From NCBI RefSeq assembly GCF_000253055.1, contig NC_016070.1:1170001-1202000 (forward strand): 32,000 bases of DNA, in the 5' to 3' direction. A model generated the notes under the pieces. It had not been told where the DNA came from, did not search any database, and was given only the letters and a program-made list of their open reading frames with translations. This DNA is from Thermoproteus tenax Kra 1. GTDB lineage: Archaea > Thermoproteota > Thermoprotei > Thermoproteales > Thermoproteaceae. Both the position numbers and the translations under genes were made by a program. Shown piece after piece: positions 4,528 through 26,381 of this stretch (position 1 is the first letter of the stretch; every line of letters begins with the position of its first letter).

Positions 4528-5091
4528 TCATATGGGGTATTCGAAGTTGGTCTCGGCCTCCCTAAGCGGCGGGCACCTCCGGTCCTTCTCGCTGAGGATT
4601 GCGTCTCCTATGGGCCAGGGGATGCCCACCTCGGGGTCGTCCCACCTCACGCAGCGCTCGTGCTGCGGGCTGTACTCCTTAGTCATGAGGTACATGAAGA
4701 GGGTGTCGTCCTCCAGCGCCTGGAAGCCGTGGGCGAAGCCCGGCGGAATCCACAGAAGCCTCGGCTCGTCGGCAGACAGCTCCACCGCCACGTACCTCCC
4801 AAACCAAGGCGACCCCCTCCTAACGTCGACGGCCACGTCCAGAACCCGCCCCCTGAGGACGGCCACCAGCTTCCCCTGCTCAGCCGGCTTAAGCTGGTAG
4901 TGGAGCCCTCTCACCACCCCCCGCCGCGACATGCTCACGCTCACCTGCACAAAGTCGTAGGGCACTCCCCCCGCCAGGAAGTCGGTGCGCTTGTAAAGCT
5001 CGGCGAAGAACCCCCTGTGGTCGGGGAAGACCACAGGCTCTATGAGAATTACGTCCGGGATCTCTAGCCTCTTGAAGCTCCTAAACGGCAT
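4528..5091 (-). CDS. rmlC: dTDP-4-dehydrorhamnose 3,5-epimerase
   Basis: 187 aa. DHRGFF, RGLHYQ and WIPPGFAHGF motifs. Last gene of the rml operon. Confidence 0.92.
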   Translation of the reverse strand: MPFRSFKRLEIPDVILIEPVVFPDHRGFFAELYKRTDFLAGGVPYDFVQVSVSMSRRGVVRGLHYQLKPAEQGKLVAVLRGRVLDVAVDVRRGSPWFGRYVAVELSADEPRLLWIPPGFAHGFQALEDDTLFMYLMTKEYSPQHERCVRWDDPEVGIPWPIGDAILSEKDRRCPPLREAETNFEYPI

Positions 5092-5094
5092 ACT

Positions 5095-5928
5095 TCACGA
5101 AGTGCCTAAGGGCTCCCTCAGCGAAGGCAGGGACAGCCCCATAGACGCCGCCCTAGATGTGTCCAGGCTCGAGTCCCGAGGCCGCCTAGCCGCCAGCCGC
5201 GCCTCAGACAGCCTCGCCGGCTTCACAAGGCTTTTGTCCACCCCCAGAGCCTCCGCCAGAGCCACCGCGAACTCAAACCGGGTGGCGGGCTCCCCAGCGA
5301 TGTGGACAATCCCCTCCACATCCCGCTCCAGAAGATCCGCGAGGCGCTCCGCCAGAAACGGCACATACGTCGGCGAAAGCCTCTGATCCACGAAAGCCCT
5401 CACCTCCTCCCCCCACCTAAGCCTCAGAAGAGCCTCAACCCCAAAGTTCCTCTTCCCATGGGGGCTCACCCCAAAGAGCCCGCTCACCCTCACCACCACC
5501 CCACCCCTCGCCAGCACAGGCCCCTCCCCCAGCAGCTTAGACAAGCCGTAGTAGTTCACGGGGTTGGGGACGTCCTCCTCCCTATACATCCCCCTCTCCC
5601 CGTCGAACACGTAATCCGTCGAGATGTACACCACCCGCCTAGCCGCCCTAGCCACCGCCAACGTCGCCAGGAAGTTAGCCCTATACGCCCTCGCCCGATC
5701 CACCTCACACCCGTCCACGTCCGTGTAGGCGGCCGCGTGGACCACCACGTCGGCCCGACGCACCACCTCCGGAACCCCAGCCTCAAGGTCAGCCCTCACC
5801 CACTCCACCCCCTCCAGCCCCCCGCCTCTCTCCCGGTACACCCCATACACCCTATACCCCCTCTCCGCCAGCTCCCTCGCCACCCACCACCCCAGCAGCC
5901 CCCCAGCCCCCGTCACCACTACCTCCAT
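5095..5928 (-). CDS. rmlD: dTDP-4-dehydrorhamnose reductase
   Basis: 277 aa. VTGAGGLLG Rossmann motif and YGLSKLLGE (YxxxK). Overlaps the rmlB stop by 10 nt. Confidence 0.9.
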   Translation of the reverse strand: MEVVVTGAGGLLGWWVARELAERGYRVYGVYRERGGGLEGVEWVRADLEAGVPEVVRRADVVVHAAAYTDVDGCEVDRARAYRANFLATLAVARAARRVVYISTDYVFDGERGMYREEDVPNPVNYYGLSKLLGEGPVLARGGVVVRVSGLFGVSPHGKRNFGVEALLRLRWGEEVRAFVDQRLSPTYVPFLAERLADLLERDVEGIVHIAGEPATRFEFAVALAEALGVDKSLVKPARLSEARLAARRPRDSSLDTSRAASMGLSLPSLREPLGTS

Positions 5929-6881
5929 GGCTCATCCGCAAGCACGTACTCGTCCAGCAGGGGGCGCCACCACCACTCGTTCTCCCTATACCACTCCACA
6001 GTCCTCCTAAGCCCCTCCTCCAGAGACACCTCAGGCCTCCACCCCAGCCCCCTCAACTTGTCACAACGCATGGCGTACCTCATATCCTCCCCCGGCCTCC
6101 CCCGCACGTACTTCACAGAACCACCCAGCGCAGAGGCGATCCTCTCCACCACCTCCCGCACAGACGCCGGCTGCCCCGCACAGACGTTGTAGATACCCCC
6201 GTCCACCCCCCGCTCGATGACCACCTCCAGCGCCCGCACGAAATCCCCCACATAAAGCCAATCCCTCACCTGCCGCCCGTCCCCATAGATCGTGGCGGGC
6301 CTACCCAACAGGAGGCGCACAATGGTGCGGGGGATGAGCTTCTCCGGATGCTGAAACGGCCCGTAGTTGTTACAAGGCCTAACAATCCTAAACCTAACCC
6401 CATACGTCCTCCCATACGCCTGCACCAGGAGGTCCCCAGCAGCCTTAGAGGCGGAGTAGGGGCTACTGGGCCTCATAGGCCAAGACTCGTCGGCCTCGCC
6501 GCCGCTTGCCAGGTCCCCATACACCTCGTCCGTAGAGATGTGGACATAGAGAAAGCCAAGCTTCCGCGCCGCCTCCAGAACCGAGTGCACCCCCCAGACG
6601 TTAGTCGTAAGAAAAGGCGCCGGGTCGTTAATAGACCGGTCCACGTGCGTCTCCGCCGCGAAGTTAACCACCACATCCGGCCTAAACCGCGACAGGACAT
6701 AGAAGAGAAGCTCGAAGTTCGCCACGTCCCCCCTCACAAACTCCACCTCCACCCCCCTGAGGTTCTCGAGGCGCCCCGCATACGTCAGCTTATCGTAGAC
6801 AAGCACCTCGCCGCGGCCCGCCATATGCCTCACGAAGTTACTCCCCATAAACCCAGCCCCCCCGATGACGGCCACCCTCAT
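5919..6881 (-). CDS. rmlB: dTDP-glucose 4,6-dehydratase
   Basis: 320 aa. IGGAGFMGSNF and YSASKAAGD (YxxxK). 4-nt overlap with rmlA. Confidence 0.92.
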   Translation of the reverse strand: MRVAVIGGAGFMGSNFVRHMAGRGEVLVYDKLTYAGRLENLRGVEVEFVRGDVANFELLFYVLSRFRPDVVVNFAAETHVDRSINDPAPFLTTNVWGVHSVLEAARKLGFLYVHISTDEVYGDLASGGEADESWPMRPSSPYSASKAAGDLLVQAYGRTYGVRFRIVRPCNNYGPFQHPEKLIPRTIVRLLLGRPATIYGDGRQVRDWLYVGDFVRALEVVIERGVDGGIYNVCAGQPASVREVVERIASALGGSVKYVRGRPGEDMRYAMRCDKLRGLGWRPEVSLEEGLRRTVEWYRENEWWWRPLLDEYVLADEPWR

Positions 6882-7936
6882 AGCTCCACCCGGCTGAAGT
6901 CCGAGATTATAAGCCTTGCCTCCCCCCTAAGATCCCGCCGCGACCTTACGACGCTACGCCTACCCAACACGCTGTCCACAAGCCTAAGCCCGCCCACCTC
7001 CACCTCCGCCTCGTTGAGAAGAAGGGAGCGCGACGCGCCGCCCGAGGCCAGGCGCGCCCCCGACTCCAGCGACACGTAGTGCTCCACCACCGCCCCCCGC
7101 CCCACGTACGCCCCCGGCCCCACGTAGGCCGGGCCAAACACCCTCCCCTCAACCACGGCGCCCTTCTCCACGACGACGCGCCCAACCACCTCCCCCCGGA
7201 CCTCCCCCTCCACCCTTGCCTCGGCGTGGTCTAGGAGAAGGTACACCGCCTCCAGAAGGCCCTCCGGCGTCCCCACGTCCTTCCACCAGCCGTCAACGAA
7301 GTCAAACCCCACCCTCCTCCCTCGGTCGATAAACCACTGGATGAGGTCCGTCACCTCGTACTCCCCCCTCCACGACGGCTTAAGCGACGAGAAGGCCCTC
7401 GCCACGTCCTCAGGATCCCTAAACATATACACGCCGACTACCGCCAGATCCGAGACCGGCTCCCTAGGCTTCTCCACCAGCCTAACCACCCGGCCGTCCC
7501 TAAGGACGGCCACCCCAAACCGGCTCGGGTCGGGCACCCTCGCCAGGAGGATGTAGACGTCGAAATCCCCCTCCAAAAAGGCACGCACGTGGCGCTTGAT
7601 GCCGCCCGCCAAGATGTTATCCCCCAGATAAACCACGAAGGGCCCCTTTATTTCGGGCAACGCCAGGCTGATGGCGTGGGCGATGCCCAGCCGGCGCTCC
7701 TGCCAGAAGTAGCGCACCCGCACCCCCAGGCGAGAGCCATCCCCCAGATGCTCTTGAATCAGATGCCCCATATACCCCACAACCACCCCCACCTCCGAAA
7801 CCCCAGCCTCAGCCAGGTGGACGATGGGGTATTCGATCATCGCCCTACCCAGAAGCGGGATCAAGTGCTTCGGAGTAGAAAACGTAAACGGCCGGAGACG
7901 CGAGCCCTCGCCGCCGGCAAGAACAAGACCAAACAT
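6878..7936 (-). CDS. rmlA: Glucose-1-phosphate thymidylyltransferase (long archaeal form with C-terminal left-handed beta-helix region)
   Basis: 352 aa. LAGGEGSRLRPFT nucleotidyltransferase signature. C-terminal part has a hexapeptide-repeat-like character (GxVVxxG repeats). Confidence 0.9.
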   Translation of the reverse strand: MFGLVLAGGEGSRLRPFTFSTPKHLIPLLGRAMIEYPIVHLAEAGVSEVGVVVGYMGHLIQEHLGDGSRLGVRVRYFWQERRLGIAHAISLALPEIKGPFVVYLGDNILAGGIKRHVRAFLEGDFDVYILLARVPDPSRFGVAVLRDGRVVRLVEKPREPVSDLAVVGVYMFRDPEDVARAFSSLKPSWRGEYEVTDLIQWFIDRGRRVGFDFVDGWWKDVGTPEGLLEAVYLLLDHAEARVEGEVRGEVVGRVVVEKGAVVEGRVFGPAYVGPGAYVGRGAVVEHYVSLESGARLASGGASRSLLLNEAEVEVGGLRLVDSVLGRRSVVRSRRDLRGEARLIISDFSRVEL

Positions 7937-8461: not shown

Positions 8462-9406
8462 CTAGGCCATCCACGTCAGCTCTTTCACTAGCTCTGCCGC
8501 CGCCCTTTTCGCCGTCTCGAGGCTGTTCAGCCTGGGCCTCCAGCCGGTGAGCTCCACTATCCTTCTGATGGAGAGGAGCATGTACTTCACGTCCCCCGGC
8601 CAGCCCCTCCCGTCTGAGGTCGCCGGCCTCAGCTTGATCTGTGGAGAGAGGCCCATGGCCTCCGCCGCGGCCCTCGCGAGGTCTAGGACGGAGGCCGCGT
8701 CGAAATTGCCCACGTTCAGCGCCAGGTACGGCTCCCCCGTCTCCTCGAACTTCCTCCAGGCCCTCAGCGTCGCCTCCACAGCCTCTTCGACGTGTAGGTA
8801 GCTCTTCCTCTGTGTGCCGTCCCCCAGAACCTCCAGCTCCTCCGGCCTCTTCCTCAGCTTCATGAGGAAGTCGTAAAGCGCCCCGTGTCTCATCCTCGGC
8901 CCCACCACGTTGGCGTACCTCAGCGCAAGGCACCTAACGCCGTAGAGCCTGGCATACGCGGCACACATCGTCTCGCCAGCCGCCTTAGCCGCGCCGTAGA
9001 CGCTTATCGGCTCCAGCGGGTGATCCTCCGGAGTCGGCATAACCCTAGCATCGCCGTAGACGGTTGAAGACGAGGCAAACACGACAGTCCTAACGCCGGA
9101 GGCGCGGGCCCACTCCAGCACGTTAAACGTAGCCACCATATTCTCCTCAAAATGGACGCGGGGCTCCGTAGTGGAGACCCTAACCTCGGGGTTCGCGGCG
9201 AAGTGGAAGACGACGTCCGCCCTCAGCCCCGCGCCCCAGCCGGGCTCCTTTAGATCCCGCCTTATGAACTCGGCGCGGGGGTTCACGTTCTCTTTCCTGC
9301 CTGTGGAGAGGTTGTCCACGACCACTACCTCGTACCCCTCCTCCACAAGCCGATCCACCAGGTGGCTGCCGATGAAGCCGGCTCCGCCTGTCACCAAAAC
9401 CCTCAC
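8462..9406 (-). CDS. NAD-dependent sugar epimerase/dehydratase (SDR, UDP-glucose 4-epimerase-like)
   Basis: 314 aa. VTGGAGFIGSHLV and YGAAKAAGE (YxxxK). GTG start. Confidence 0.88.
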   Translation of the reverse strand: MRVLVTGGAGFIGSHLVDRLVEEGYEVVVVDNLSTGRKENVNPRAEFIRRDLKEPGWGAGLRADVVFHFAANPEVRVSTTEPRVHFEENMVATFNVLEWARASGVRTVVFASSSTVYGDARVMPTPEDHPLEPISVYGAAKAAGETMCAAYARLYGVRCLALRYANVVGPRMRHGALYDFLMKLRKRPEELEVLGDGTQRKSYLHVEEAVEATLRAWRKFEETGEPYLALNVGNFDAASVLDLARAAAEAMGLSPQIKLRPATSDGRGWPGDVKYMLLSIRRIVELTGWRPRLNSLETAKRAAAELVKELTWMA

Positions 9407-10855: not shown

Positions 10856-11720
10856 TTAGACCAACTTCGATAAAAAAAGACGGCCGAACCTTGTGCCAAC
10901 TCTGGCTAAGTTGGGCAGAGTGGCCGCCGTCAGCCTAAATGAGACGACACGCTCCATTAGGGCGAAGGCCCACAGCCCCAACGGTATCCTGCTGGGCAAC
11001 TCGGCGACGCCCCTCGCCACAGCTAAATGTAGAGACGCAATATAGCGCATCGCCGGAGCTACCCCCAGCTCCTCCAAGATCCCCCTGTCGAGCCACTTAT
11101 CGACGGTCAGAAAATCGTTGAGCGTGTAGATCCGCTCTTTATAAACGGCGTGCGCTACCGCGAGGGCCGCCTCCGCGCCTAGGGAGAGGGCAGGCAACTT
11201 GACGCCGCCAAAGTCGGCCACTTTCCACGTGTTTAAAAAGCCCCTCGGCATCCAGATACGCGACGCCGCCCAACGTGGGCAAGACGTAGAGATCCACGAT
11301 GTCGACGCCGCGAGCCATAGTCACACAGTACGGATCCTTCACGGCGACTGAGAAGCCCCTCTTCCTCAACTCAACGACGGCGAGCCCCACGTCTCTCCGG
11401 TCGACCAACACATCGACGTCGGAAGGCACATAGGCGACAGGCCTCCTGAGCTTAATGAACACGTGGCGGACCCCGCGCAGAGCCTCCGCCACCTCTCTGA
11501 GGGTCTTGAGAAATCGGGCATACCTCGCCTCTTCTCTGAGCCTCAACGGCCCCTCCACGCCTGCCGATCTGAGGAAGTGCAGAAGGACTTTATTTCTCGC
11601 CGCAACTTCGACGCACTCCCCAGCAGATCTGGCGTCGACGCCGGCGCCGCGCGTAATTACGTCAAATACGAGGCGGAAGCAGTTCACAGCCCCAAGAGGA
11701 GGCGAGCCCTCTCGGCGCAT
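10856..11720 (-). pseudogene. Uncharacterised nucleotidyltransferase (NTP_transf_5-like), frameshifted
   Basis: Two ORFs in different frames (11139-11720 and 10856-11251). The N-part has the PSDVDVLVDRRD nucleotidyltransferase-type motif. The reading switches at GGGGCTTTTTAAAC (about 11231-11244): ...AYLDAEGLF then LNTWKVADFGGVKLPALSLGAEAALAVAHAVYKE... Confidence 0.7.
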
Positions 11721-12361
11721 TTGTCAACAGAGCACGACGTAGTATCCAAGACCGGCGCCCCTATGGCTTGGGCGAGCTTGTCGTAGACAGCCAACTCAAC
11801 GTCTAACAGGCCTGCCTCGGGCGACCCAGCCCTCCTCGCCCTCAAGACGTCTAAGTCGGCTCTAACGTAGAGAGAGCGGGGACAGGCCATTTTGTGGAGA
11901 GCCAGGGCCAGCCGCGCAACAGGCCCGCTCAATATTTCTGCGTCTCGCAAAGTGAGAACTAGCCAGACTAGAAGATCAACGGGCGACCTCTCTCCCACTA
12001 CGCGACGGCCCGCGGCCTTAGGAAAGACGTACTTGAGAAGAACCACGGGAAACGCTGAGAGGAGCTCCAGCCAAACCCAAAGCGGCTTCAGAGGAGGGGG
12101 CACACAGATGCCGAAATACGGATTACAACCGCCGCGGAAGACCCTAAAACGCGAGAGAAACCTCGCCAGAAGAGAGACAAACGTGTGAGAGCCCCTCATC
12201 CAGGCTATGCTGACGTCCTCCGAGACTAAGCTGCGCGCCAATGTAGATTTGCCAGAGCCGTCGGGCCCGAAAAGACAGAGCACGGCTCCTCGACGTGTCA
12301 GTGCGGCCGCGGGGAGTCTGTCTGAGAGCAGGCGCTCGGCGCTTCTAGGGGCTTGCACCAC
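11684..12361 (-). CDS. P-loop kinase-like protein (thymidylate-kinase-like layout) with hydrophobic insert, GC-rich paralog
   Basis: Walker A LFGPDGSGKST. Colinear with 18555-19253 (see findings). Start placed at GTG 12361 because a TATA-like box lies 18 nt upstream and the longer extension to 12550 is low-complexity. The start is uncertain. Confidence 0.6.
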   Translation of the reverse strand: MVQAPRSAERLLSDRLPAAALTRRGAVLCLFGPDGSGKSTLARSLVSEDVSIAWMRGSHTFVSLLARFLSRFRVFRGGCNPYFGICVPPPLKPLWVWLELLSAFPVVLLKYVFPKAAGRRVVGERSPVDLLVWLVLTLRDAEILSGPVARLALALHKMACPRSLYVRADLDVLRARRAGSPEAGLLDVELAVYDKLAQAIGAPVLDTTSCSVDKCAERARLLLGL

Positions 12362-12377
12362 GGCTCGTATGAAACGT

Positions 12378-12385
12378 ACTAAAAT
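12378..12385 (-). promoter_or_regulatory. TATA-like box for the P-loop gene
   Basis: Minus strand reads TATTTTAG, then about 17-18 nt, then GTG GTG at 12361/12358. Confidence 0.35.
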
Positions 12386-12853
12386 ACGTCTACCGTTAGA
12401 GGGGCCCTCCGCGGCGCTGGCCCTCCCCGGAGCTCGTGGCACGCCCCAAGTCGCGCTCGGAAACCCGAGATGAGGGACTTGGGTCATAGAGGGCCGGCTC
12501 TGCCCCAGATTGCACCCCCAGGGCCCGGTATCGGCTGTTTCCAATGGCACTTCTTCGTCCCCAACAACGGTGCGTGGCCTCTGAAGTTCAGGGGGGATAC
12601 AATTCCCTCTACAGCTCTTGCAGTTTCACACCGCAACGAGGGCTGACGGTGCTAATTTACAAACCGCGCTCGGGGGACATCCCGTCGATTATCCTGTGCG
12701 CCAACTCCCGCTCGTCGGGAGCGGGCGGGCGCTCTTGGCCGCGAGTCTCGGCTCCTCCCGCCCCGTCAACTTCTTCAACAGCCTCCCGGCGTACTCCCCT
12801 GCGGCGAGCCTCGGTATGGCTAGGAGGATGCCGGGTCTCTCCTCAATGGCCCG

Positions 12854-14407
12854 CTACGACATCAACATCACGATCCTCCTCTCGGCCTTAAGCAGAAACA
12901 CAAGGGGCCTCGTCAAGCCGCCGGCCCGTCTGAAGACCTCTATGAGCAACTCCACATCTCTTGCGTCCAAGGCCTTAAGCAGAGGGAGGGCCACTGCATA
13001 AGATGTAATATAGATCGGAATCCCCAGCGCGAGGGCCAAGACATTCTGCGCGCCCGCCTCAAACAGGGCCAGCGGCGGGAGAGCCGCCAGAAGAGAGGCC
13101 AGGTATATTCTGGCTATACGGGGCGCCCCTAGAGACACTTTGGCGACCTTCCTCGCCCTTATCAGCAGATATAGGGTGGAGGCGTAGCCCCCGGCGAGCC
13201 CCGCCAACACGTTCCCCAAGACTCCCAACGCCGGGACTAGAGCGAGCGTAAGCGGCAGAGACACCGCTGTGGAGACCGCCCACGACTTAAGGAGCTCCTT
13301 AGTCATCCCAAGCCCGGCGAACAAGCTACTGAGGGCGTAGCCGCCCAAGCCGACGCTGAGGGTCCCCAACGCCGCCAGCGATAGGTAGAGCGGCGCCGAC
13401 GCGTAGCTTGCGCCGTATATGAGGGACACCAAGTCCCTTGAGAACAAGATCAACGCGACGGCTACAGGCACTACAACGATCGAGCTGAGCTTGACAGACT
13501 CCCTAAAGATCCCGGCCGCGGCCTGGCCCCCAGCCCTCGAGAAGGCCGCGAAGAGCGTCGAGCTGATAGAGGACGTCAATAGGGCAAGAGCCGAGGCTAT
13601 GTTATTGGCGGCGGAGTAGTTGCCCAAGTCGTAGTTGTTTACGAAGTGGGCCGTGTAGACGAACAAGGTGTTGCTCAAGACGAAGCCCGCCAACGTGGGC
13701 ACGTAGGTGGGGTAGCTGTACGAGACCATAGACCTCAGAGACTCGAAGAAGCCGACGTCCTCCGCTCCGCCGCTGGCCAAACCTCTGTAGAGCCTAAAAA
13801 AGAAGTACAGAGCCAAGGCAGTCGCCACGGCGTAGCTCACGACGTGTCCCACAACGGCGCCCAGAACTCCTAGGTACAACGTCAACGAGAGGGCCAACGC
13901 CAGTTTCGAGGCAGCTTGAACTAGGTTGACGAGAGCCCCGTAGTCTGTCCTCAATGTGGCCAAGAAGAGGGCGTTACAGACGTCTAAAACCATGGAGGTC
14001 AACATCAGCGCCGAGGCCACTCTGACTAAACTGGACAGCTCGGGCCTGGCGAGAAAATAGCGGGCGACGGCGCCGGAAAACGCCGCTATCGTCAAAACCG
14101 CCCCGAGCCCCACGGCGGCTCTAAAAAGCAAGGCGTTTCTCGCGTAGAGCGCAGCCGCCGAGCCTCTGCCGCGAGCCGCCAGAGAAGAGACGTAGTAAGT
14201 CACGGCCCCACTCAAGCCGAGACTCAACAGAGGGCCAAATATGGAGGGTATGCTCAAAACGAGGGAGTAGATGCCGTAGCCGCTGGGCCCCAGAAGTCTG
14301 GCGATGATTATCGAGGCGGCCGCCAAAACAGCGGTGGATGCGAAACCGCCAGCGAAAAGGAAGAGCCCGCCCCTAGCAACTCTAGCAGCTTCGTCGACAT
14401 AGCCCAT
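12854..14407 (-). CDS. Wzx-like polysaccharide/oligosaccharide flippase (MOP superfamily, polysaccharide biosynthesis protein)
   Basis: 517 aa, hydrophobic throughout with many predicted TM helices and a typical N-terminal ...IARLLGPSGYGIYSL motif. An intact paralog of the broken copy at 24820-26381. Confidence 0.85.
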   Translation of the reverse strand: MGYVDEAARVARGGLFLFAGGFASTAVLAAASIIIARLLGPSGYGIYSLVLSIPSIFGPLLSLGLSGAVTYYVSSLAARGRGSAAALYARNALLFRAAVGLGAVLTIAAFSGAVARYFLARPELSSLVRVASALMLTSMVLDVCNALFLATLRTDYGALVNLVQAASKLALALSLTLYLGVLGAVVGHVVSYAVATALALYFFFRLYRGLASGGAEDVGFFESLRSMVSYSYPTYVPTLAGFVLSNTLFVYTAHFVNNYDLGNYSAANNIASALALLTSSISSTLFAAFSRAGGQAAAGIFRESVKLSSIVVVPVAVALILFSRDLVSLIYGASYASAPLYLSLAALGTLSVGLGGYALSSLFAGLGMTKELLKSWAVSTAVSLPLTLALVPALGVLGNVLAGLAGGYASTLYLLIRARKVAKVSLGAPRIARIYLASLLAALPPLALFEAGAQNVLALALGIPIYITSYAVALPLLKALDARDVELLIEVFRRAGGLTRPLVFLLKAERRIVMLMS

Positions 14408-15709: not shown

Positions 15710-16216
15710 TTATGTATAGCTTTGAGCAAATAATGCATAGTCTATATAGATGTTTGTACATGCCAAGAAGCCGAACCTTAATATAGTACCAGGGTCGTCT
15801 CTCTTGATCCTCGGCTTGCTACGTTTATTTGCAATATGGCGAAATACGCCGCGTCTAAGTTTCAGCCCCAGCCTTATTCCATCGACGTAAGACCTTATAC
15901 GCAATCTTTTCATATTGGGGAACAACGCCATGAAACGAATCATTGCATTTAAAGGCCAATGGCTATCATAAGCTATAGGTACTGCCGTACCGCTCACCCC
16001 CGACCAATACTCAAGGACCGCGTTTAACTTACGTCCTATCGTCGCACTTCTGAAGTGCTTACCTACAATTATTGGTACAGCGACTAAGGCGTAGCCGCTT
16101 CTCCAAAGTCTTATGCCCAATTCGTAGTCGTCGCCCCACATGAAGAAGTAGAACAGGGATAAGCCGTAACAAGGACCCCTAAATGATCTGAGCCTGCTGA
16201 CAAGTAAGCTATCTTT
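15710..16216 (-). pseudogene. GT2 glycosyltransferase C-terminal remnant
   Basis: The open frame begins right after TGA TGA. It reads ...LFYFFMWGDDYELGIRLWRSGYALVAV, matching ...YFFWFDDVDYSLRVWSAGYRVVCV of the intact GT2 at 17553-18554. The whole N-terminal catalytic half (DxD region) is absent. Confidence 0.65.
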
Positions 16217-16410
16217 TCATCAGAACATTGGTATTGGGATGTTTATAGATTACATCCGTGTAGCTTGGTAAAAATAAAGTATCTACAGGGTGGCTAATGT
16301 AGAAGAGCCAGACTTGTAAAAGTCGCGTAGGTTATTAACTATAAACTGAAGCTAAACATTGCAATGGTAATGAGTATTACACAAACATTAACTATAGTGT
16401 AAACTTACAA

Positions 16411-17004
16411 TTAGTCCTCCTCGCGTTTGTTCGTCACTTCATTAAATAGTACGGCAAGATTTGATGCCATATCAGTCAAAGGGTAACGCTCAGCAAGTCT
16501 TCTAGAGCTAAGGCTTGGAACTACGTAAGAATTGTCCTTTTTCCAAAGCATATAATATTTCAAGACTCCCCTTGTTAGACTTCTGAGATCAAATGGCCTA
16601 GTTATATGGCCGCAGAGCTCACCCTTGGATACGGCTGGCTTCAGAATATCTCTGGGAGCTCCGGGAATGTCAAACGCGACTACAGGTGTACCGCAAGCTA
16701 GGGCTTCGAGAACTATTAGACCGAAAGTTTCATACCTGCTTGGAAAGAGTAAGAGATGTGCTTGAAGTAGTTCCCTGAGAAAGTCTCTTCTAGATAGCCA
16801 ATGAAATATTTCGACCCTGCTTGGGAACTTGCTAGCGAGATCTTGGAGATATCGTACGGGAACTGGAAGTATACCATGACCAAGAAATATCTTAGCTTGT
16901 ATGTCTGGGAAACGCGAAAGGAGAGAGCTTATAACAGATGCTGCGATATCTGCACCTTTTCCATACCGGGCACCAACAAATTCAGGAGTTAAATAAAGAG
17001 TTAT
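16411..17004 (-). pseudogene. Split GT4 glycosyltransferase, piece 3 of 3 (C-terminal domain)
   Basis: ITLYLTPEFVGARYGKGADI...FPSRYETFGLIVLEALACGTPVVAFD (GT4 E-x7-E region). The 13 codons upstream (to 17043) are antisense of piece 2. Confidence 0.75.
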
Positions 17005-17459
17005 TGAAACGCAGGATAAAAACAATTGCTGTACCATCAACATACGAGTTCCCTCTAAGCCGTTTGGATCCCCGATTCTTCGCAGAGTTTGACGTAATTT
17101 ATTTCGTCAATTTGTTTTTTCCTACTGACGAACTTCGCTATCTCTTAAGACTTTCTCATACCCTAAAGACAAAGCCCATAGTATATGGTGTACACGCACT
17201 AGTAATTATGCCTGGATTTAGAGGGTATAGGCCACGTAATTACTTATATAGTGTATTATCTCTTCTTCGGCTAACTGTTGAAAAGGTATTTATAAACAAA
17301 CAAATCAGAGTCGTTCATGTTTTAAACAGCTTTGATCTCTCTGTGTTTAAAACTCTAGAGTTTCGTCGGACGGCGTATATCCCATGGGGTATTCCCAATA
17401 CGATACTAGAAAGATGTCAGCCGTATTCTAATAAAAAACAAAGCAATAAGTTTACTATT
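17005..17459 (+). pseudogene. Split GT4 glycosyltransferase, piece 2 of 3 (N-domain segment, inverted relative to pieces 1 and 3)
   Basis: The plus-strand frame reads KRRIKTIAVPSTYEFPLSRLDPRFFAEFDVIYFVN...KPIVYGVHALV...RVVHVLNSFD...AYIPWGIPN...NKFTI, colinear with N-domains of the intact GT4s. No GT4 C-domain follows it on the plus strand. Confidence 0.7.
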
Positions 17460-17514
17460 GAAAGTATTCATCCGATGGCTTCCAATTTACGAATGCTACC
17501 TTAATAAATTCCAC
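17460..17514 (-). pseudogene. Split GT4 glycosyltransferase, piece 1 of 3 (first 18 codons)
   Basis: GTG at 17514, then EFIKVAFVNWKPSDEYF. In the present arrangement it runs into Q-stop. It resembles MYRVLFVNWFDEG of the remnant at 14871. Confidence 0.6.
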
Positions 17515-17535
17515 CGATTTAATACTACCTAGGAA

Positions 17536-17543
17536 CTTATAAA
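17536..17543 (-). promoter_or_regulatory. TATA-like box for the split GT4 gene
   Basis: Minus strand reads TTTATAAG, then 21 nt, then GTG at 17514. Confidence 0.4.
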
Positions 17544-17552
17544 CACACGTGC

Positions 17553-18554
17553 TTATCGTAAAAGGTGTAAATTTTTTGCTGTCAAATGTGGATATGCGAC
17601 AGCACGATACGTATTTATTGAAAGCCTAATTTTACTCGTATAAAGCTTTCGGCCTATGGCTCTCTTTACGAAGTGTTTTAAGCCTATAAACGAGTAAAGA
17701 AGCCCTAGCGTGTCCAAATGCCTTAGATAATGTAGTATTGATACGTATGTGTACTCAATTATAGCGATCGGCAATATCGCGACAAGAGATGTGACAGGTA
17801 ACTTCATCAGCAGAGACATAAAATTCCTTGAGAAGTAATATTGTAACTTTGGGTTCGTTTTGCCAAATGTAGCACTACCGATGTGGTATACAAAGTGTCT
17901 GAGTACGCAGACTACTCTATACCCTGCTGACCAAACCCTCAAGCTATAGTCAACATCATCAAACCAGAAAAAGTAGTCTTCGTCAAACATGCCAAGCTTA
18001 AAGAAAAGATCTGATCTTGTCATAAGAGCCGCGCCAATTGCATACGATACATCTAACAAGTTTTTGTGCATTTTATGAGTATATATCGCATCGGCTGTTA
18101 TGGGAGAGGGTATGAGACCCAGACTCAAAGCAAACCCAAGGTTATGTGAACCATCTAGGTTTATCACTACAGGTTGGGCAACTCCTACATCGGGGTTGCT
18201 CTCCATGATCTCGACTAGTCCAGAAACCAAGTCAGGCTTTATAAATACGTCATCATTCAAGAATAATATATATTTACTATCTCTAAGGAGTACTGCAGCC
18301 CTATTGTTGCCCCCGGACCACCCATAGTTCTTCCTCAACCTCAAGATCTCAACATTACACTTGGAACTTCTTGTATTAAAGAACTCGGCCACAAAGTCTG
18401 GGGTTCTATCTCTCGATCCATTGTCGGCTATCACAACCCTACAGTTATCGTAATCTATAGAGGACAGTCGTGTCAATATCTTTTGAAATACTTCCTCGCC
18501 AATTTTGCTAAGAGTGTTATACGTCAACATTACTATACCTACTCTTGGCTTCAT
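17553..18554 (-). CDS. GT2 glycosyltransferase (rhamnosyltransferase-like architecture, C-terminal TM segment)
   Basis: 333 aa. VGIVMLTYNT, VVIADNGSRDRT, LFLNDDV and WFDDVDYSLRVWSAGYRV. Confidence 0.88.
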   Translation of the reverse strand: MKPRVGIVMLTYNTLSKIGEEVFQKILTRLSSIDYDNCRVVIADNGSRDRTPDFVAEFFNTRSSKCNVEILRLRKNYGWSGGNNRAAVLLRDSKYILFLNDDVFIKPDLVSGLVEIMESNPDVGVAQPVVINLDGSHNLGFALSLGLIPSPITADAIYTHKMHKNLLDVSYAIGAALMTRSDLFFKLGMFDEDYFFWFDDVDYSLRVWSAGYRVVCVLRHFVYHIGSATFGKTNPKLQYYFSRNFMSLLMKLPVTSLVAILPIAIIEYTYVSILHYLRHLDTLGLLYSFIGLKHFVKRAIGRKLYTSKIRLSINTYRAVAYPHLTAKNLHLLR

Positions 18555-19253
18555 CTATTTAACTTGGGAAGTTATGAGATTCGAAACTATGTTAAAGACA
18601 GCCTTTATGTCTAAAGAGGATGTATCTATATAATATGTTTCTATATATGTAGCAAAAGATAACAGACTCTTAGAGAGAGTTCGATAAAACTCGATCCAAC
18701 CCCTTGGCTCGGTATAAGAACCCCTCTTTCTATACCGAGCTAGTAATGAGCTGTAGCCTGCATCTAAGTATATGATAATACTATGTGCTGAGAAAAGACG
18801 TAAGAGCAGGCGTGTGATTATAAGATGCGTACGCGTAATCTTATGGCTTGAGAGGCCTATTGCATACATATCAACCAGAAAGTCTATGACATGCCTCGTC
18901 ACAATTACTGTATAACCCATTAGTCTAAATAGCAAAACTTTGAGAACGTGAGCTGTCAAGAAGGCCGCGGTTTCTAGTATTAACCATGTATTAATAATTC
19001 TACCTATAAATAGCCTATCTACTCTGGAGATGTATACATCTGGATAACGATAGTACTCTGCACGTCCACACCAAATTAGGAACTTTATCAAAAGGTACAT
19101 GAAGAGATTATTACTCCTAACTTCTGTAATTACCACAGGCAACCTATACCTCTTTTCTAGATATCGCTTAACTAGATACGCTTGAGTAGTCTTACCAGCG
19201 CCTTCGGGCCCCAGAATGTATATCAATAACCTATTCCGCATTCCGTTTCCCAA
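18555..19253 (-). CDS. P-loop kinase-like protein (thymidylate-kinase-like layout) with hydrophobic insert, AT-rich paralog
   Basis: 232 aa. Walker A ILGPEGAGKTTQ, VTRHVIDFLV (DR-motif position) and IIIYLDAGYSSLLARYRKRG. Abuts the next gene with no spacer. Confidence 0.65.
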   Translation of the reverse strand: MGNGMRNRLLIYILGPEGAGKTTQAYLVKRYLEKRYRLPVVITEVRSNNLFMYLLIKFLIWCGRAEYYRYPDVYISRVDRLFIGRIINTWLILETAAFLTAHVLKVLLFRLMGYTVIVTRHVIDFLVDMYAIGLSSHKITRTHLIITRLLLRLFSAHSIIIYLDAGYSSLLARYRKRGSYTEPRGWIEFYRTLSKSLLSFATYIETYYIDTSSLDIKAVFNIVSNLITSQVK

Positions 19254-20344
19254 CTTCTGTAGAGAATTTATGGAGTATCTCTTTCATAACCCTTAATAGC
19301 GATAACCTAAAGACCTTAAAGGTATAGTTTCTCTCTATAAGTCCTCGGAATTCTGACGCGATAGACCGCCAACTCTCACGCGGTAGACTATTGTTGACAA
19401 AGTCTTCTATAGGGATATAGTGTTTTCTGGGAATCGCCGGCAGGTGTAACATGCCCGTGGCAGTTGTGATTATGGGTATTCCACAGTAGCCGGCCTCTAG
19501 TATTTTGTTCCTTATACCACCGCATATGGCATTCTTAGGATAAGGTAGTATTGCAGCATCTGACGATATTATTAACGCCACGTACATCGGATATGATAGG
19601 TAGCCTGTATACACAATATTTCTATGTATCTTGTCCTTAACCTTAAGACCTGTTACAAAGATCACAAAATCCTGTGACAGCATAGATGTTATCTTCAACA
19701 ACTCCTCATACGCAAGTATGTTAGATGCAAAAATGTCAGGCAGAGGGGCCACAAATATTTTCTTTCTATGACAGTCAAATACTTCTAAAGAGGTACACAG
19801 CGTCCTACGTATGTTCTCAATGCTAATATTCTTTAATTTTGTTACTATATTTTCAAAAATAGGAGTCAAAGCATTCTCTATAACAAACACTTCCCCAATA
19901 GAAAAGTACTTATTAAGCACCATAGCTAGATATCTTGAGGCTACTATAATGTATTTAGCGTGTTTGTAGGTAATATATTCACTAATAAATAACAACAATT
20001 TAGAAATGGTATTAGCTTTGCCCATAGCCAATGTCTCAAGCCAAGAAGAGCCGTGCACATCAACGATTATGGGTCTCCTGACGGTCTTTCTTTACAAAGA
20101 CGACTAGTGCAGCAACCCAGGGATTGACACCACTGACTATAACTAAATCTGCCCCTACCAGACTCGATAGAATACTAGGCATAAGTATATAAACGACACT
20201 TGTAACAGGTATATAGATCAGCTGTATAGAGCTCAGATCCCTCAGTGAGTAGTATATGTTAAGTGGCCTGAGAAGAGAGCCAGAGATATTATTAGCAGAA
20301 GGACCTATTACAACAAGACGCCATTTCGTAGACCAGGTTTGCAT
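19231..20344 (-). pseudogene. GT4-like glycosyltransferase with one frameshift
   Basis: ORFs 20060-20344 and 19231-20058 are in different frames. The reading ...PWVAALVVFVKK then (R)KTVRRPIIVDVHGSSWLE switches within GTAAAGAAAGACC (about 20065-20090). The C-part has NKILEAGYCGIPIITTATG. Confidence 0.65.
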
Positions 20345-24819: not shown

Positions 24820-26381
24820 TCAGCGGCTTAGGAGGTTCACAACGCGCCTCTCAACCGCGAGCAAGGCGACGAGGGGCTTAGCCGCTGGCCCTACCTGTCT
24901 CAAAACCTCCGTGAGAACCTCCACATCCTTACCATCGATGGCTTTTAGCAGCGGGAGCGCAACTGCGTAGGCCACTACATACACAGCAGCCCCAACCGCG
25001 AGGGCCAGCGCGTCGTGCGCCATCACCGCCGTCGCCGCGAGCGTTGGGAAGGCAGACACGAGGGACGCCGCGTATACCCTAGCGACGCGAGGCACGCCTA
25101 TGGATACGCCAACAGCTCTTTCAGCCCTAGCCAGTAAGTAAGCGATCGATGCGTAGCCGCCGACTAGCCCAGCCATCATGGCGCCGAGAACTCCGAGAGC
25201 GGGCACGAGGGCTAGCGTAAGCGGTAGCGATACAGCGGTTGAGACAAGCCACGACCTCAGGGCCTCCCTCGTCATCCCAAGCCCGGCGAATAAGCTACCG
25301 AGGGCGTAACCTCCTACGCCGACGCCGAGGGCTCCGAGCGTCGCCAGCGATAGGTAGAGAGGAGCTAGCGCGTAGCCCTCGCCATAGACGACGCGTACCA
25401 TGTGCTTAGAGAGCAGTATTGTCAGCACAGCGGCGGGTAGCACCACGATTGAGCTAAGCCTAACGAACTCCCTAAGACCACAGCCACACCACACCCATCG
25501 GCGCCGAGCCTCGAAAAGACTGCGAACAACGTCGAGCCTATGGACGACGTTAGTAAGCTAAACACCGAAGCTAGGTTCATAGCGACTTAGTAGTTGCCGA
25601 GGTCGTAATCGCTCACGAAGTGGGCCGTGTAGGTGAACAACGCCCTATCAACGACGAAGCTGACTAACATCGGCACGTAGAGGGGGTAGCTGTAGAGGGC
25701 CATAGACCTAAGCGACTCAACGAAGCCAACACCCCCCGCGTAATCACCGCCTAAAGCCCTGAAGAGCTTTATGAGGAGGGCCAGCGCCAGGGCCGCCGCC
25801 ACGACGTAGCTCGCGACATGCTCCAGAACAGCCCCGAAGACCCCTATCCACAGCACGAGCGGCACGGCGAGCGCCAGCTTCGAGGCAGCTTGGGATACCT
25901 TGATGAGGGCCCCGTAATCAGTCCTCAGCATAGCTAGGAAGAAGCCATCGCAAACGCCTATAACCAACGAGGTTGTGATCAAGACGGAGGCCACAGAGAC
26001 TAAGCTGGAAACATCGGGCCTGGCGAGGACGTAGCGCGCGACCGCGTCGGCAAACACCACCACGGCTAGGGAGGCCGCAAGCCCCAAAGTAGCCTCGAGG
26101 AGGAGCGCGTTCCTAACGTAGAGCACAGCCACAGAGCCCCTACCACTAGCAACGAGCGAGGAGGCGTAGTAGGTCACGGCATGCCCAATGCCGAGGCTAA
26201 GCAATGGGCCGAACACAGCGGGGAGGCTCAGGACGAGCGAGTAGACGCCGTAGCCATCAGGCCCCAAGAGCCTAGCAATGACTATCGAGGACGCGGCTGA
26301 GATGAGCATAGTAGCAAGCCCACCAACGAATAGATGAAGCCAACCCCTAGAGGCGCTCACAGCAAAATTACCAAACCTCAT
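24820..26381 (-). pseudogene. Second Wzx-like flippase copy, inactivated (premature stop plus frameshift)
   Basis: The N-part 25587-26381 ends ...FVSDYDLGNY-TAA where the intact copy reads ...FVNNYDLGNYSAANNIAS. Homology continues after the stop (VAMNLASVFSLLTSSIGSTLFAVFSR), then shifts frame near 25475-25500 into the C-part 24820-25494 (LREFVRLSSIVVLPAAV...). Confidence 0.85.

Follow-up and report, generated by a model that had tools for sequence, protein, structure and literature searches.

Two distantly related P-loop proteins with the thymidylate-kinase fold, putative kinases of surface-glycan biosynthesis, in a glycan locus of Thermoproteus tenax

In Escherichia coli O9a the terminal mannose of the polyprenol-linked O-antigen is phosphorylated by WbdD and the phosphate is then methylated (PMC3482155). 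In the biosynthesis of the lasso peptide pseudomycoidin, PsmN is needed to attach a hexose to the phosphate installed by the kinase PsmK; PsmN, assigned to an uncharacterised family of nucleotidyltransferases, does not function without its D-x-D motif (PMC6993621). A survey of phosphonate biosynthesis contains a Ppm neighbourhood, 'GCF 540', in which a 'thymidylate kinase' stands beside a PF14907 protein (PMC8942020). Here we describe two genes, copy 1 and copy 2, from a 32,000-nucleotide stretch of the genome of the archaeon Thermoproteus tenax Kra 1 (contig NC_016070.1, positions 1,170,001 to 1,202,000), which is referred to as the window and whose first letter is position 1. An initial annotation, made from the letters of the window, had described the two products as homologous, kinase-like P-loop proteins with hydrophobic inserts. 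Both genes are intact, distant homologues within an uncharacterised thymidylate-kinase-fold P-loop superfamily. They are putative ATP-dependent kinases of surface-glycan biosynthesis, which would work in two-gene or fused modules with a transferase and would phosphorylate a membrane-bound glycan intermediate; this reading is given a probability of about 0.42.

Direct comparison of copy 1 with copy 2 by BLASTP gave a weak match (E 4e-4) over 54 residues, consisting of the P-loop plus RGSHT/RSNNL. Family searches returned 65 matches for copy 1 and 9 for copy 2, and the family profiles held 53 sequences (A1, family 1) and 9 sequences (A2, family 2). When A1 was aligned with A2 using hhalign, a probability of 99.7% and an E value of 5.2e-26 were obtained over 201 columns at 21% identity, which bears out the homology first noticed by eye. 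The five motif pairs cited for it were all recovered in this profile alignment, where the copy 1/copy 2 pairs are GPDGSGKST/GPEGAGKTT, RGSHTFVSLLARFL/RSNNLFMYLLIKFL, WVWLELLSAF/WLILETAAF, ERSPVDLLV/TRHVIDFLV and YVRADLDVLRARR/YLDAGYSSLLARY. In the merged alignment, using copy 1 numbering, residues G6, G9, G11, K12, E73, R99, D103, R150 and Y167 are invariant across both families, and T14, R30, P55, W69, A142, D180 and T181 are nearly invariant. The residues predicted for ATP binding and phosphoryl transfer, comprising Walker A, R30, R99, R150, D103 and the E73 contained in a hydrophobic helix, are intact in both proteins (Table 1).

The minus strand contains a maximal open reading frame (ORF) of 288 amino acids at 11684-12550 for copy 1 and an ORF of 232 amino acids at 18555-19253 for copy 2. 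The best gene model for copy 1, based on homologues and a database gene call (P0010), is 11684-12283 with a GTG start at 12283, giving a protein of 199 amino acids that begins VLCLFGPDG. The most likely start of copy 2, again from homologues and a database gene call (P0001), is the ATG at 19241 (228 amino acids) rather than the TTG at 19253. Both ORFs of the initial annotation are therefore present on the minus strand, with their starts shifted from 12361 and 19253 to 12283 and 19241. The GTG at 12361 is without backing from homologues; the start of copy 1 is not fully settled between 12283 and 12361, because the TATA-like sequence TATTTTAG lies approximately 17 nt upstream of 12361. At the connection between helix 1 and strand 2 (residues ~20-24, LVS------EDVSIAW) copy 1 is 6-7 residues shorter than all of its homologues, and the model of this protein is still confident. 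The 570-nt gap between copy 1 and the Wzx gene (12284-12853) has a guanine plus cytosine (GC) content of 0.64, and no protein remnant was detected in it by tblastn and no RNA by Rfam.

AlphaFold models of the two proteins were confident (pLDDT, the predicted local distance difference test, is given in Table 1). When these were compared with the PDB using Foldseek, the 50 matches listed per model were all thymidylate kinases, except for chains of a Giardia deoxyadenosine kinase, with template modelling (TM) scores of 0.51-0.74, identities of 13-22% and approximately 205-243 aligned columns. Both copies follow thymidylate kinase in the order of their elements: strand 1, P-loop, helix 1, strand 2, helix 2, helix 3, and strand 3 followed by an (E/D/T)R motif, then helices, strand 4, a LID helix containing R150, a helix, strand 5 and a helix. 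The acid preceding the motif arginine is E/D in family 1 and Thr in family 2. The arginine that follows strand 3 comes 87 amino acids after the Walker lysine in copy 1 and 99 after it in copy 2, compared to 84 in the E. coli thymidylate kinase. The resemblance to the thymidylate-kinase fold proposed in the initial annotation was therefore correct, while its view that the segment between the P-loop and the DR position had been replaced has to be given up, as the spacing and topology of thymidylate kinase are kept. An insert in place of the NMP-binding (nucleoside monophosphate) region was rejected on the same grounds.

The sequence of each copy was also compared with curated families. Copy 2 gave 23.8 bits against Pfam Thymidylate_kin (PF02223; cutoff 27), confined to residues 15-43 (29 residues of the P-loop region), and 23.6 bits against TIGR00041 (cutoff 83.25); copy 1 matched neither. 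Against the deoxynucleoside kinase family PF01712 copy 2 reached 14.4 bits (cutoff 27, E 0.033) and copy 1 had no match, and against the HPr-kinase-related family TIGR04352, the type of PsmK, copy 1 reached 15.5 bits (cutoff 200) over the P-loop only. PADLOC and PHROGs, which cover anti-phage defence and phage proteins, yielded matches at the level of the P-loop only, and an origin in a defence system or phage was rejected on that basis. A PDB sequence search using the family profiles returned P-loop-level matches together with weak C-terminal ones to thymidylate and adenylate kinases. No confident match to a characterised family was thus obtained from the Pfam, NCBIfam, PDB profile, PADLOC and PHROGs searches.

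Alignment of the family profiles with single thymidylate-kinase sequences by hhalign was only partial. A global hhalign alignment with the thymidylate kinases of E. coli, human and M. tuberculosis, whose sequences were validated against the PDB, gave a probability of 96.5% over 198 columns. In this alignment R99 corresponds to E. coli R100, the DR arginine, and W107 to Y108, the tyrosine of the AYQ motif. E. coli F74 and R78, which we take to be the thymine-stacking Phe and the O4-binding Arg, fall on a non-conserved position and on a Leu respectively, in a low-confidence stretch of the alignment. A bona fide thymidylate or deoxynucleoside kinase was rejected on the curated thresholds and the aligned pocket residues, and the two copies are members of a distinct family that has the thymidylate-kinase fold without being a bona fide deoxythymidine monophosphate (dTMP) kinase.

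The thymidylate kinases (PF02223/TIGR00041; PDB 2pbr, 4tmk, 2plr) nevertheless share with the window proteins the fold, the order of elements, the P-loop G-x-[DE]-G-x-G-K-[ST]-T with its acidic residue, the arginine after strand 3 equivalent to that of the DR motif, and an arginine in the LID region. These features, together with the thymidylate kinases being the closest structures among the listed Foldseek matches, would suit a kinase acting on dTMP or some other NMP, with a part in recycling or supplying nucleotides where nucleoside diphosphate (NDP) sugars are used, which was the dTDP-rhamnose idea of the initial annotation. Such a role would also draw on the rmlABCD genes in the window, on the epimerase/dehydratase genes found near the kinase in 16 of the metagenome loci described below, and on the top match of the GT2 glycosyltransferase next to copy 2, a sub-threshold match to a rhamnosyltransferase. 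Nucleotide recycling is nonetheless the least supported of the candidate roles put forward earlier and is considered improbable. Both proteins lie below the curated thymidylate-kinase thresholds and the aligned thymine-binding residues are not conserved, with the reservation about alignment quality given above. GT2 enzymes release NDP and not NMP. The fusions to methyltransferases, the multiple paralogues and the hydrophobicity of the family do not fit a nucleotide kinase. The window proteins also differ from thymidylate kinases in their genomic context, which is one of glycan clusters with dedicated partner transferases rather than of nucleotide metabolism. Among the family members P0006, P0021, P0030, P0031, P0036, P0053 and P0073, the label 'thymidylate kinase' given by several public pipelines occurs beside 'EcfA2' and 'DNA polymerase III delta prime'; such names look like annotation transfer from the P-loop alone.

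One obvious difference from thymidylate kinase is helix 3, which is approximately 11 residues longer and much more hydrophobic. This helix forms the hydrophobic stretch at residues 63-90 of copy 1 and 83-107 of copy 2 and bears the superfamily-invariant Glu. In family 1 it is preceded by a β-hairpin containing an NPYY motif, at the site of a thymidylate-kinase loop. The best 19-residue Kyte-Doolittle window was at least 1.6 in 32 of the 53 family-1 proteins and in 9/9 family-2 proteins, with maxima of 1.65 in copy 1 and 1.83 in copy 2, and the grand average of hydropathy (GRAVY) was +0.2 to +0.4 in the family compared to -0.20 for E. coli thymidylate kinase. The hydrophobic character that had been ascribed to the region between the P-loop and the DR position is well founded on these values, and helix 3 may mediate association with the membrane.

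The gene neighbourhood was then compared across archaea. All five of the inspected loci with precomputed Pfam annotation (5/5) are glycan clusters containing GT2, GT4 and methyltransferase genes, and one also has a Wzx gene. Metagenome contigs were scanned at the DNA level for the pattern W-x-R-G-[ST]-H, 20 amino acids, N-P-Y-[FY], for which the chance expectation in the window is zero. This yielded 120 loci, in which 104 kinase ORFs were complete; at 90% identity these ORFs fell into 94 clusters, and the non-redundant loci numbered 93. The recurrent neighbours in these 93 loci, nearly all co-directional with the kinase, are an NTP_transf_5-like gene (41 loci), an FkbM-type methyltransferase (18 loci, as a rule immediately upstream), GT4, GT2 and epimerase/dehydratases. 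The annotated loci and the metagenome loci agree in placing the kinase in a conserved glycan-cluster neighbourhood in other archaea, the setting that the initial annotation had proposed to check. A second, divergent paralogue was present in 16 of the 93 loci. Being 'present twice in the locus', as the initial annotation put it, is therefore something seen repeatedly in such clusters.

The kinases are paired with particular partners: copy-1-type kinases with an NTP_transf_5 protein, copy-2-type kinases with a GT2 and other subfamilies with S-adenosylmethionine (SAM) methyltransferases. The initial annotation had missed the conserved partners in the window, where copy 1 is directly followed by an NTP_transf_5-like gene and copy 2 by a GT2. 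Among the 55 clusters with at least 700 nt of downstream sequence, the NTP_transf_5-like gene adjoins the kinase in 38 (37 directly downstream and 1 upstream) and lies elsewhere in the locus in 5. Its product has 285-350 amino acids and is encoded on the same strand, often with an overlap of 15-24 nt with the kinase. Of 33 partner homologues, 28 matched PF14907 at E<=0.01, with 1.1e-10 as the best value, and the first member examined scored 26.3 bits against a cutoff of 31.2; no PDB sequence match to the partner was found. Residues K87, D98, D100, D140, H187 and E192 are invariant, with D98, D100 and D140 forming a D-x-D...D motif of the Pol-beta type, and from its sequence the partner is read as a distant NTP_transf_5 (PF14907) member.

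Kinases and nucleotidyltransferases are classically paired in pathways of salvage and activation. The two could thus be a sugar-activation pair, in which the kinase turns a free precursor into a sugar-1-phosphate, or another alcohol-phosphate, and the NTP_transf_5-like partner makes the NDP-donor for the glycosyltransferases of the cluster. The 37 of 55 loci with a directly following and often overlapping gene of nucleotidyltransferase fold would agree with this, and the several paralogues per locus could each serve a different sugar. We regard sugar activation as unlikely, since nucleotidyltransferases of the Pol-beta type normally transfer nucleotides to hydroxyls rather than forming NDP-sugars, such strong hydrophobicity would be odd for an enzyme acting on soluble sugars, and the fusions of the superfamily are with GT2 and methyltransferases and not with the nucleotidyltransferase. 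Moreover, no nucleotidyltransferase-like gene adjoins the kinase in family 2 or in the L001/L003 clade, where a GT2 takes its place; in L001 a nucleotidyltransferase-like gene lies approximately 2.9 kb upstream.

No NTP_transf_5-like partner was found at the loci of family 2. Every family-2 locus with sequence extending past the kinase has a gene directly downstream (the window, L005, L134, L135 and L006), which is annotated as GT2 in the window, L005, L134 and L135 and is a 348-amino-acid gene without Pfam data in L006. In L067 and L094 a separate Methyltransf_11 gene directly follows family-2-like kinases. A profile search of 1.84 billion representative proteins reached 143 clusters (50% identity) at E<=1e-30; with the cutoff relaxed to E<=1e-10 the number was 1218. 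The source names that state an organism are all archaeal, and the superfamily looks archaeal, so far seen only there. The best matches include kinase-GT2 fusions (P0119, P0142 and P0212) as well as fusions with a SAM methyltransferase in which the kinase comes first (P0146) or second (P0205); these last two are independent events because the domain orders are opposite. P0207, in which a GT2 fragment is joined inside the P-loop, was not counted as a fusion as it looks like an assembly or gene-calling artefact. A small P-loop family (DGPPASGKST..., ~215-224 amino acids) was observed directly before a GT2 in L058 (4367-5041, minus strand), L063, L092 and L129. It aligned with family 2 by hhalign at 92% over 84 columns, including the Glu of the hydrophobic helix, and may represent one more branch of this superfamily.

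The proximity to GT2 enzymes raises the question of whether the substrate is the carrier lipid itself, with the kinase phosphorylating dolichol, polyprenol or dolichol phosphate and so feeding the adjacent GT2. The hydrophobic helix appears to line the site at which the thymidylate-kinase fold has its acceptor pocket, the genes are fused to or adjoin membrane-bound GT2 enzymes, and an archaeal dolichol kinase is not named in a 2024 review of archaeal N-glycosylation. On the other hand, the partner GT2s resemble glycan-elongating enzymes and not dolichol-phosphate sugar synthases: the matches are sub-threshold and include rhamnosyltransferase, EpsD and HpsE, and the top NCBIfam match of the copy 2 partner is to the rhamnosyltransferase subfamily. 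The presence of 2-3 paralogues per locus and of methyltransferase and nucleotidyltransferase partners is hard to explain with a carrier-lipid kinase, and the family is patchy rather than universal among archaea. This role is considered quite unlikely.

In such clusters a growing lipid-linked glycan would be the common denominator of GT2, SAM methyltransferase and NTP_transf_5 enzymes, and phosphorylation of this glycan is the simplest unifying reading. The kinase would use ATP on a dolichol-linked glycan intermediate at the cytoplasmic face of the membrane, docking via hydrophobic helix 3, and the partner enzyme would then add to, cap or require the phosphate. WbdD and PsmK/PsmN are two cases of this mode of action that have been studied by experiment. 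Possible products would be a methyl-phosphate cap with a methyltransferase and a phosphate-linked sugar with an NTP_transf_5 protein. The analogy with WbdD is functional and not one of homology. Like the proposed reaction, that of the WbdD kinase takes place on a polyprenol-linked glycan at the cytoplasmic membrane, and the kinase is coupled to a SAM methyltransferase; among the kinases described here, distant relatives have such a methyltransferase fused to them, in either domain order. However, the WbdD kinase has the eukaryotic-protein-kinase fold while the window proteins have the P-loop fold and are unfused, and WbdD belongs to an ABC-transporter-dependent pathway while the window locus has Wzx. 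PsmK and PsmN provide the parallel of a kinase with a nucleotidyltransferase-type protein, comparable to the copy-1-type kinases followed by an NTP_transf_5-like protein with an invariant D-x-D; PsmN is presumably a PF14907 member. In contrast to the window proteins, PsmK belongs to the HPr-kinase family and acts on a peptide serine, in a bacterial system. The 'GCF 540' neighbourhood, compared by its description only, has the same pairing of domain types as the copy-1 module, and no phosphoenolpyruvate (PEP) mutase was seen in the loci surveyed here, unlike in that Ppm neighbourhood.

Several points weigh against a kinase of glycan intermediates. R30, R99 and R150, which we take to correspond to the thymidylate-kinase arginines that bind the acceptor phosphate, make a phosphate acceptor such as a nucleotide, a sugar-phosphate or dolichol-phosphate as compatible as a hydroxyl. 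The hydrophobic helix belongs, with high confidence in the models, to the globular fold and could be a dimer or partner interface and not a membrane anchor. The kinase-GT2 fusions are 33-43% identical across both domains and therefore form one old lineage. To our knowledge no phosphate-containing glycan has been described in Thermoproteus, the word 'kinase' is absent from the 2024 review of archaeal N-glycosylation, and, with the copy 1 partner frameshifted, at least one module may be non-functional in T. tenax.

Phosphorylation of a membrane-bound glycan would have consequences beyond this locus. A review without a kinase, set beside a glycan-cluster family of at least 143 clusters that is coupled to transferases, suggests that a chemistry is missing from the present picture of archaeal glycans or of the lipid-linked molecules from which they are made, namely phosphate esters, phosphodiesters or methyl-phosphate caps. 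A more specific proposal is an unrecognised step of archaeal surface-glycan synthesis, in which thymidylate-kinase-fold kinases act on dolichol-linked oligosaccharides and each is tied to a partner that builds on the phosphate: a phosphodiester-linked substituent with NTP_transf_5, a methyl-phosphate cap with the methyltransferase, and a phosphate serving as recognition mark with GT2. This proposal is possible though doubtful. If it were true, many archaeal glycans (in Thermoproteota, Bathyarchaeia and, by annotation of metagenome-assembled genomes, DPANN groups) would bear undescribed phosphate-based decorations or chain terminators. The family would also provide a first functional handle on NTP_transf_5 (PF14907), which is still 'uncharacterised' in Pfam. 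Literature searches revealed no paper joining 'thymidylate kinase-like', glycosyltransferase and archaea, and none linking HprK-related kinases with nucleotidyltransferases. We found no earlier description of the kinase family, of the partners it has or of the role it would play in glycan clusters of archaea; the fold and the chemistry are of a known kind. Members of the family should not be labelled 'thymidylate kinase', as is done by several metagenome pipelines.

The two copies differ in their history. Copy 1 (GC at third codon positions 0.67) has a composition like that of the flanking native genes, whereas copy 2 and its GT2 partner (GC 0.40) lie inside a low-GC island at approximately 16000-20000 (GC 0.38-0.43) that tapers to approximately 23000 (0.45-0.48), compared to 0.55-0.64 in the flanks. 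The island contains copy 2, its GT2 and several glycosyltransferase fragments. It is the 'low G+C region 3' of the published T. tenax genome, for which an abundance of glycosyltransferase genes was described (PMC3189178). Copy 2 was therefore acquired separately and is no local duplicate of copy 1, and the copy-2/GT2 module came with the island. A local tandem duplication of one gene was rejected given the 21% identity and the difference in GC (0.59 vs 0.38).

The description of the locus as full of pseudogenes was accurate, as five disrupted genes were identified using tblastn with neighbour proteins of related loci (Table 1). The inverted N-terminal fragment of a GT4 gene beside its C-terminal half indicates rearrangement after acquisition. 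In the partner gene of copy 1 there is a single frameshift near 11218-11225 (GTGGAAAGTGG), beside a short A-run, which could be a real mutation or a sequencing error of the 2011 assembly; because of it the copy-1 module is probably crippled in T. tenax. The initial annotation had taken the retention of both intact copies as a sign of selection. This cannot be concluded, since the partner of copy 1 and the upstream neighbour of copy 2 are both broken and intactness alone is therefore no proof of selection. The five disrupted genes would also accommodate a further explanation, that the proteins are non-catalytic or regulatory nucleotide-binding subunits of the partner transferases, or are in this genome functionless remnants of a decaying locus, and both the fusions and the overlap between start and stop codons could reflect a stable complex. 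However, Walker A and the catalytic-type Arg, Asp and Glu are invariant throughout the superfamily and both copies retain every invariant residue, which argues for catalysis at the level of the family. The explanation as a whole is considered highly improbable.

Table 1. Positions of the two kinase genes, their motifs and partners, and the disrupted genes of the locus, numbered from the first letter of the window.
Feature	Position	Strand	Remarks
Copy 1, thymidylate-kinase-fold P-loop kinase, family 1	11684..12283	-	20/20 family-invariant residues kept; AF2 pLDDT 93.2; GC 0.59
Copy 1 Walker A, GPDGSGKST	12242..12268	-	Bears the acidic residue characteristic of P-loops in thymidylate kinases
Copy 1 long hydrophobic helix 3, PPLKPLWVWLELLSAFPVVLLKYVFPKA	12014..12097	-	Includes W69 and superfamily-invariant E73
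Copy 1 RSPVDLLVW	11963..11989	-	R99 is the DR-motif arginine equivalent; also D103 and W107
N-terminal half of NTP_transf_5-like partner of copy 1	11139..11720	-	Disrupted (split) gene; D-x-D in PSDVDVLV; overlaps copy 1 end by 37 nt; hmmsearch E 3.8e-50
C-terminal half of the same NTP_transf_5-like partner	10856..11251	-	Disrupted (split) gene; other frame; E 7.9e-26
Wzx-type flippase (Polysacc_synt)	12854..14407	-	Upstream of copy 1, 570-nt gap between
Copy 2, thymidylate-kinase-fold P-loop kinase, family 2	18555..19241	-	39/39 invariant residues of alignment A2 kept; pLDDT 89.9; GC 0.38
Copy 2 Walker A, GPEGAGKTT	19185..19211	-	
Copy 2 hydrophobic helix 3, INTWLILETAAFLTAHVLKVLLFRL	18921..18995	-	Holds the invariant Glu
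GT2 glycosyltransferase	17553..18554	-	Abuts copy 2 stop codon; conserved downstream partner of family 2
Split GT4-like gene directly upstream of copy 2	19231-20058 + 20060-20344	-	Disrupted gene; both parts match one 352-aa protein of locus L012; weak GT4 (Glyco_trans_1_4) match for 19231-20058
GT2 C-terminal fragment	15797-16171		Disrupted gene
GT4 C-terminal half	16423-16980	-	Disrupted gene
Inverted N-terminal fragment of GT4	17085-17411	+	Disrupted gene, same as preceding row
Second Wzx/Polysacc_synt-like flippase, two pieces	24820-25494 + 25587-26381	-	Disrupted gene; pieces match residues 308-524 and 18-304 of one 532-aa L017 protein

The window also contains a complete rmlC-rmlD-rmlB-rmlA (dTDP-rhamnose) set at 4528-7936 on the minus strand and a further epimerase/dehydratase gene at 8462-9406. 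Homologues of these rml and epimerase genes recur beside the kinase elsewhere, for example in L035, L047 and L020. An APH-type phosphotransferase gene (PF01636, protein-kinase-like), encoding an unrelated second kinase, was observed immediately upstream of the family-1 kinase in L035 (4968-5894, plus strand) and L125. A dual-specificity phosphatase-like (DSPc) gene and HAD-type hydrolase genes were observed in L007 (3812-4375, plus strand), L032 (4547-5182, plus strand), L047 and L082, and the presence of DSPc-like and HAD-type genes in some clusters would fit a transient phosphate mark.

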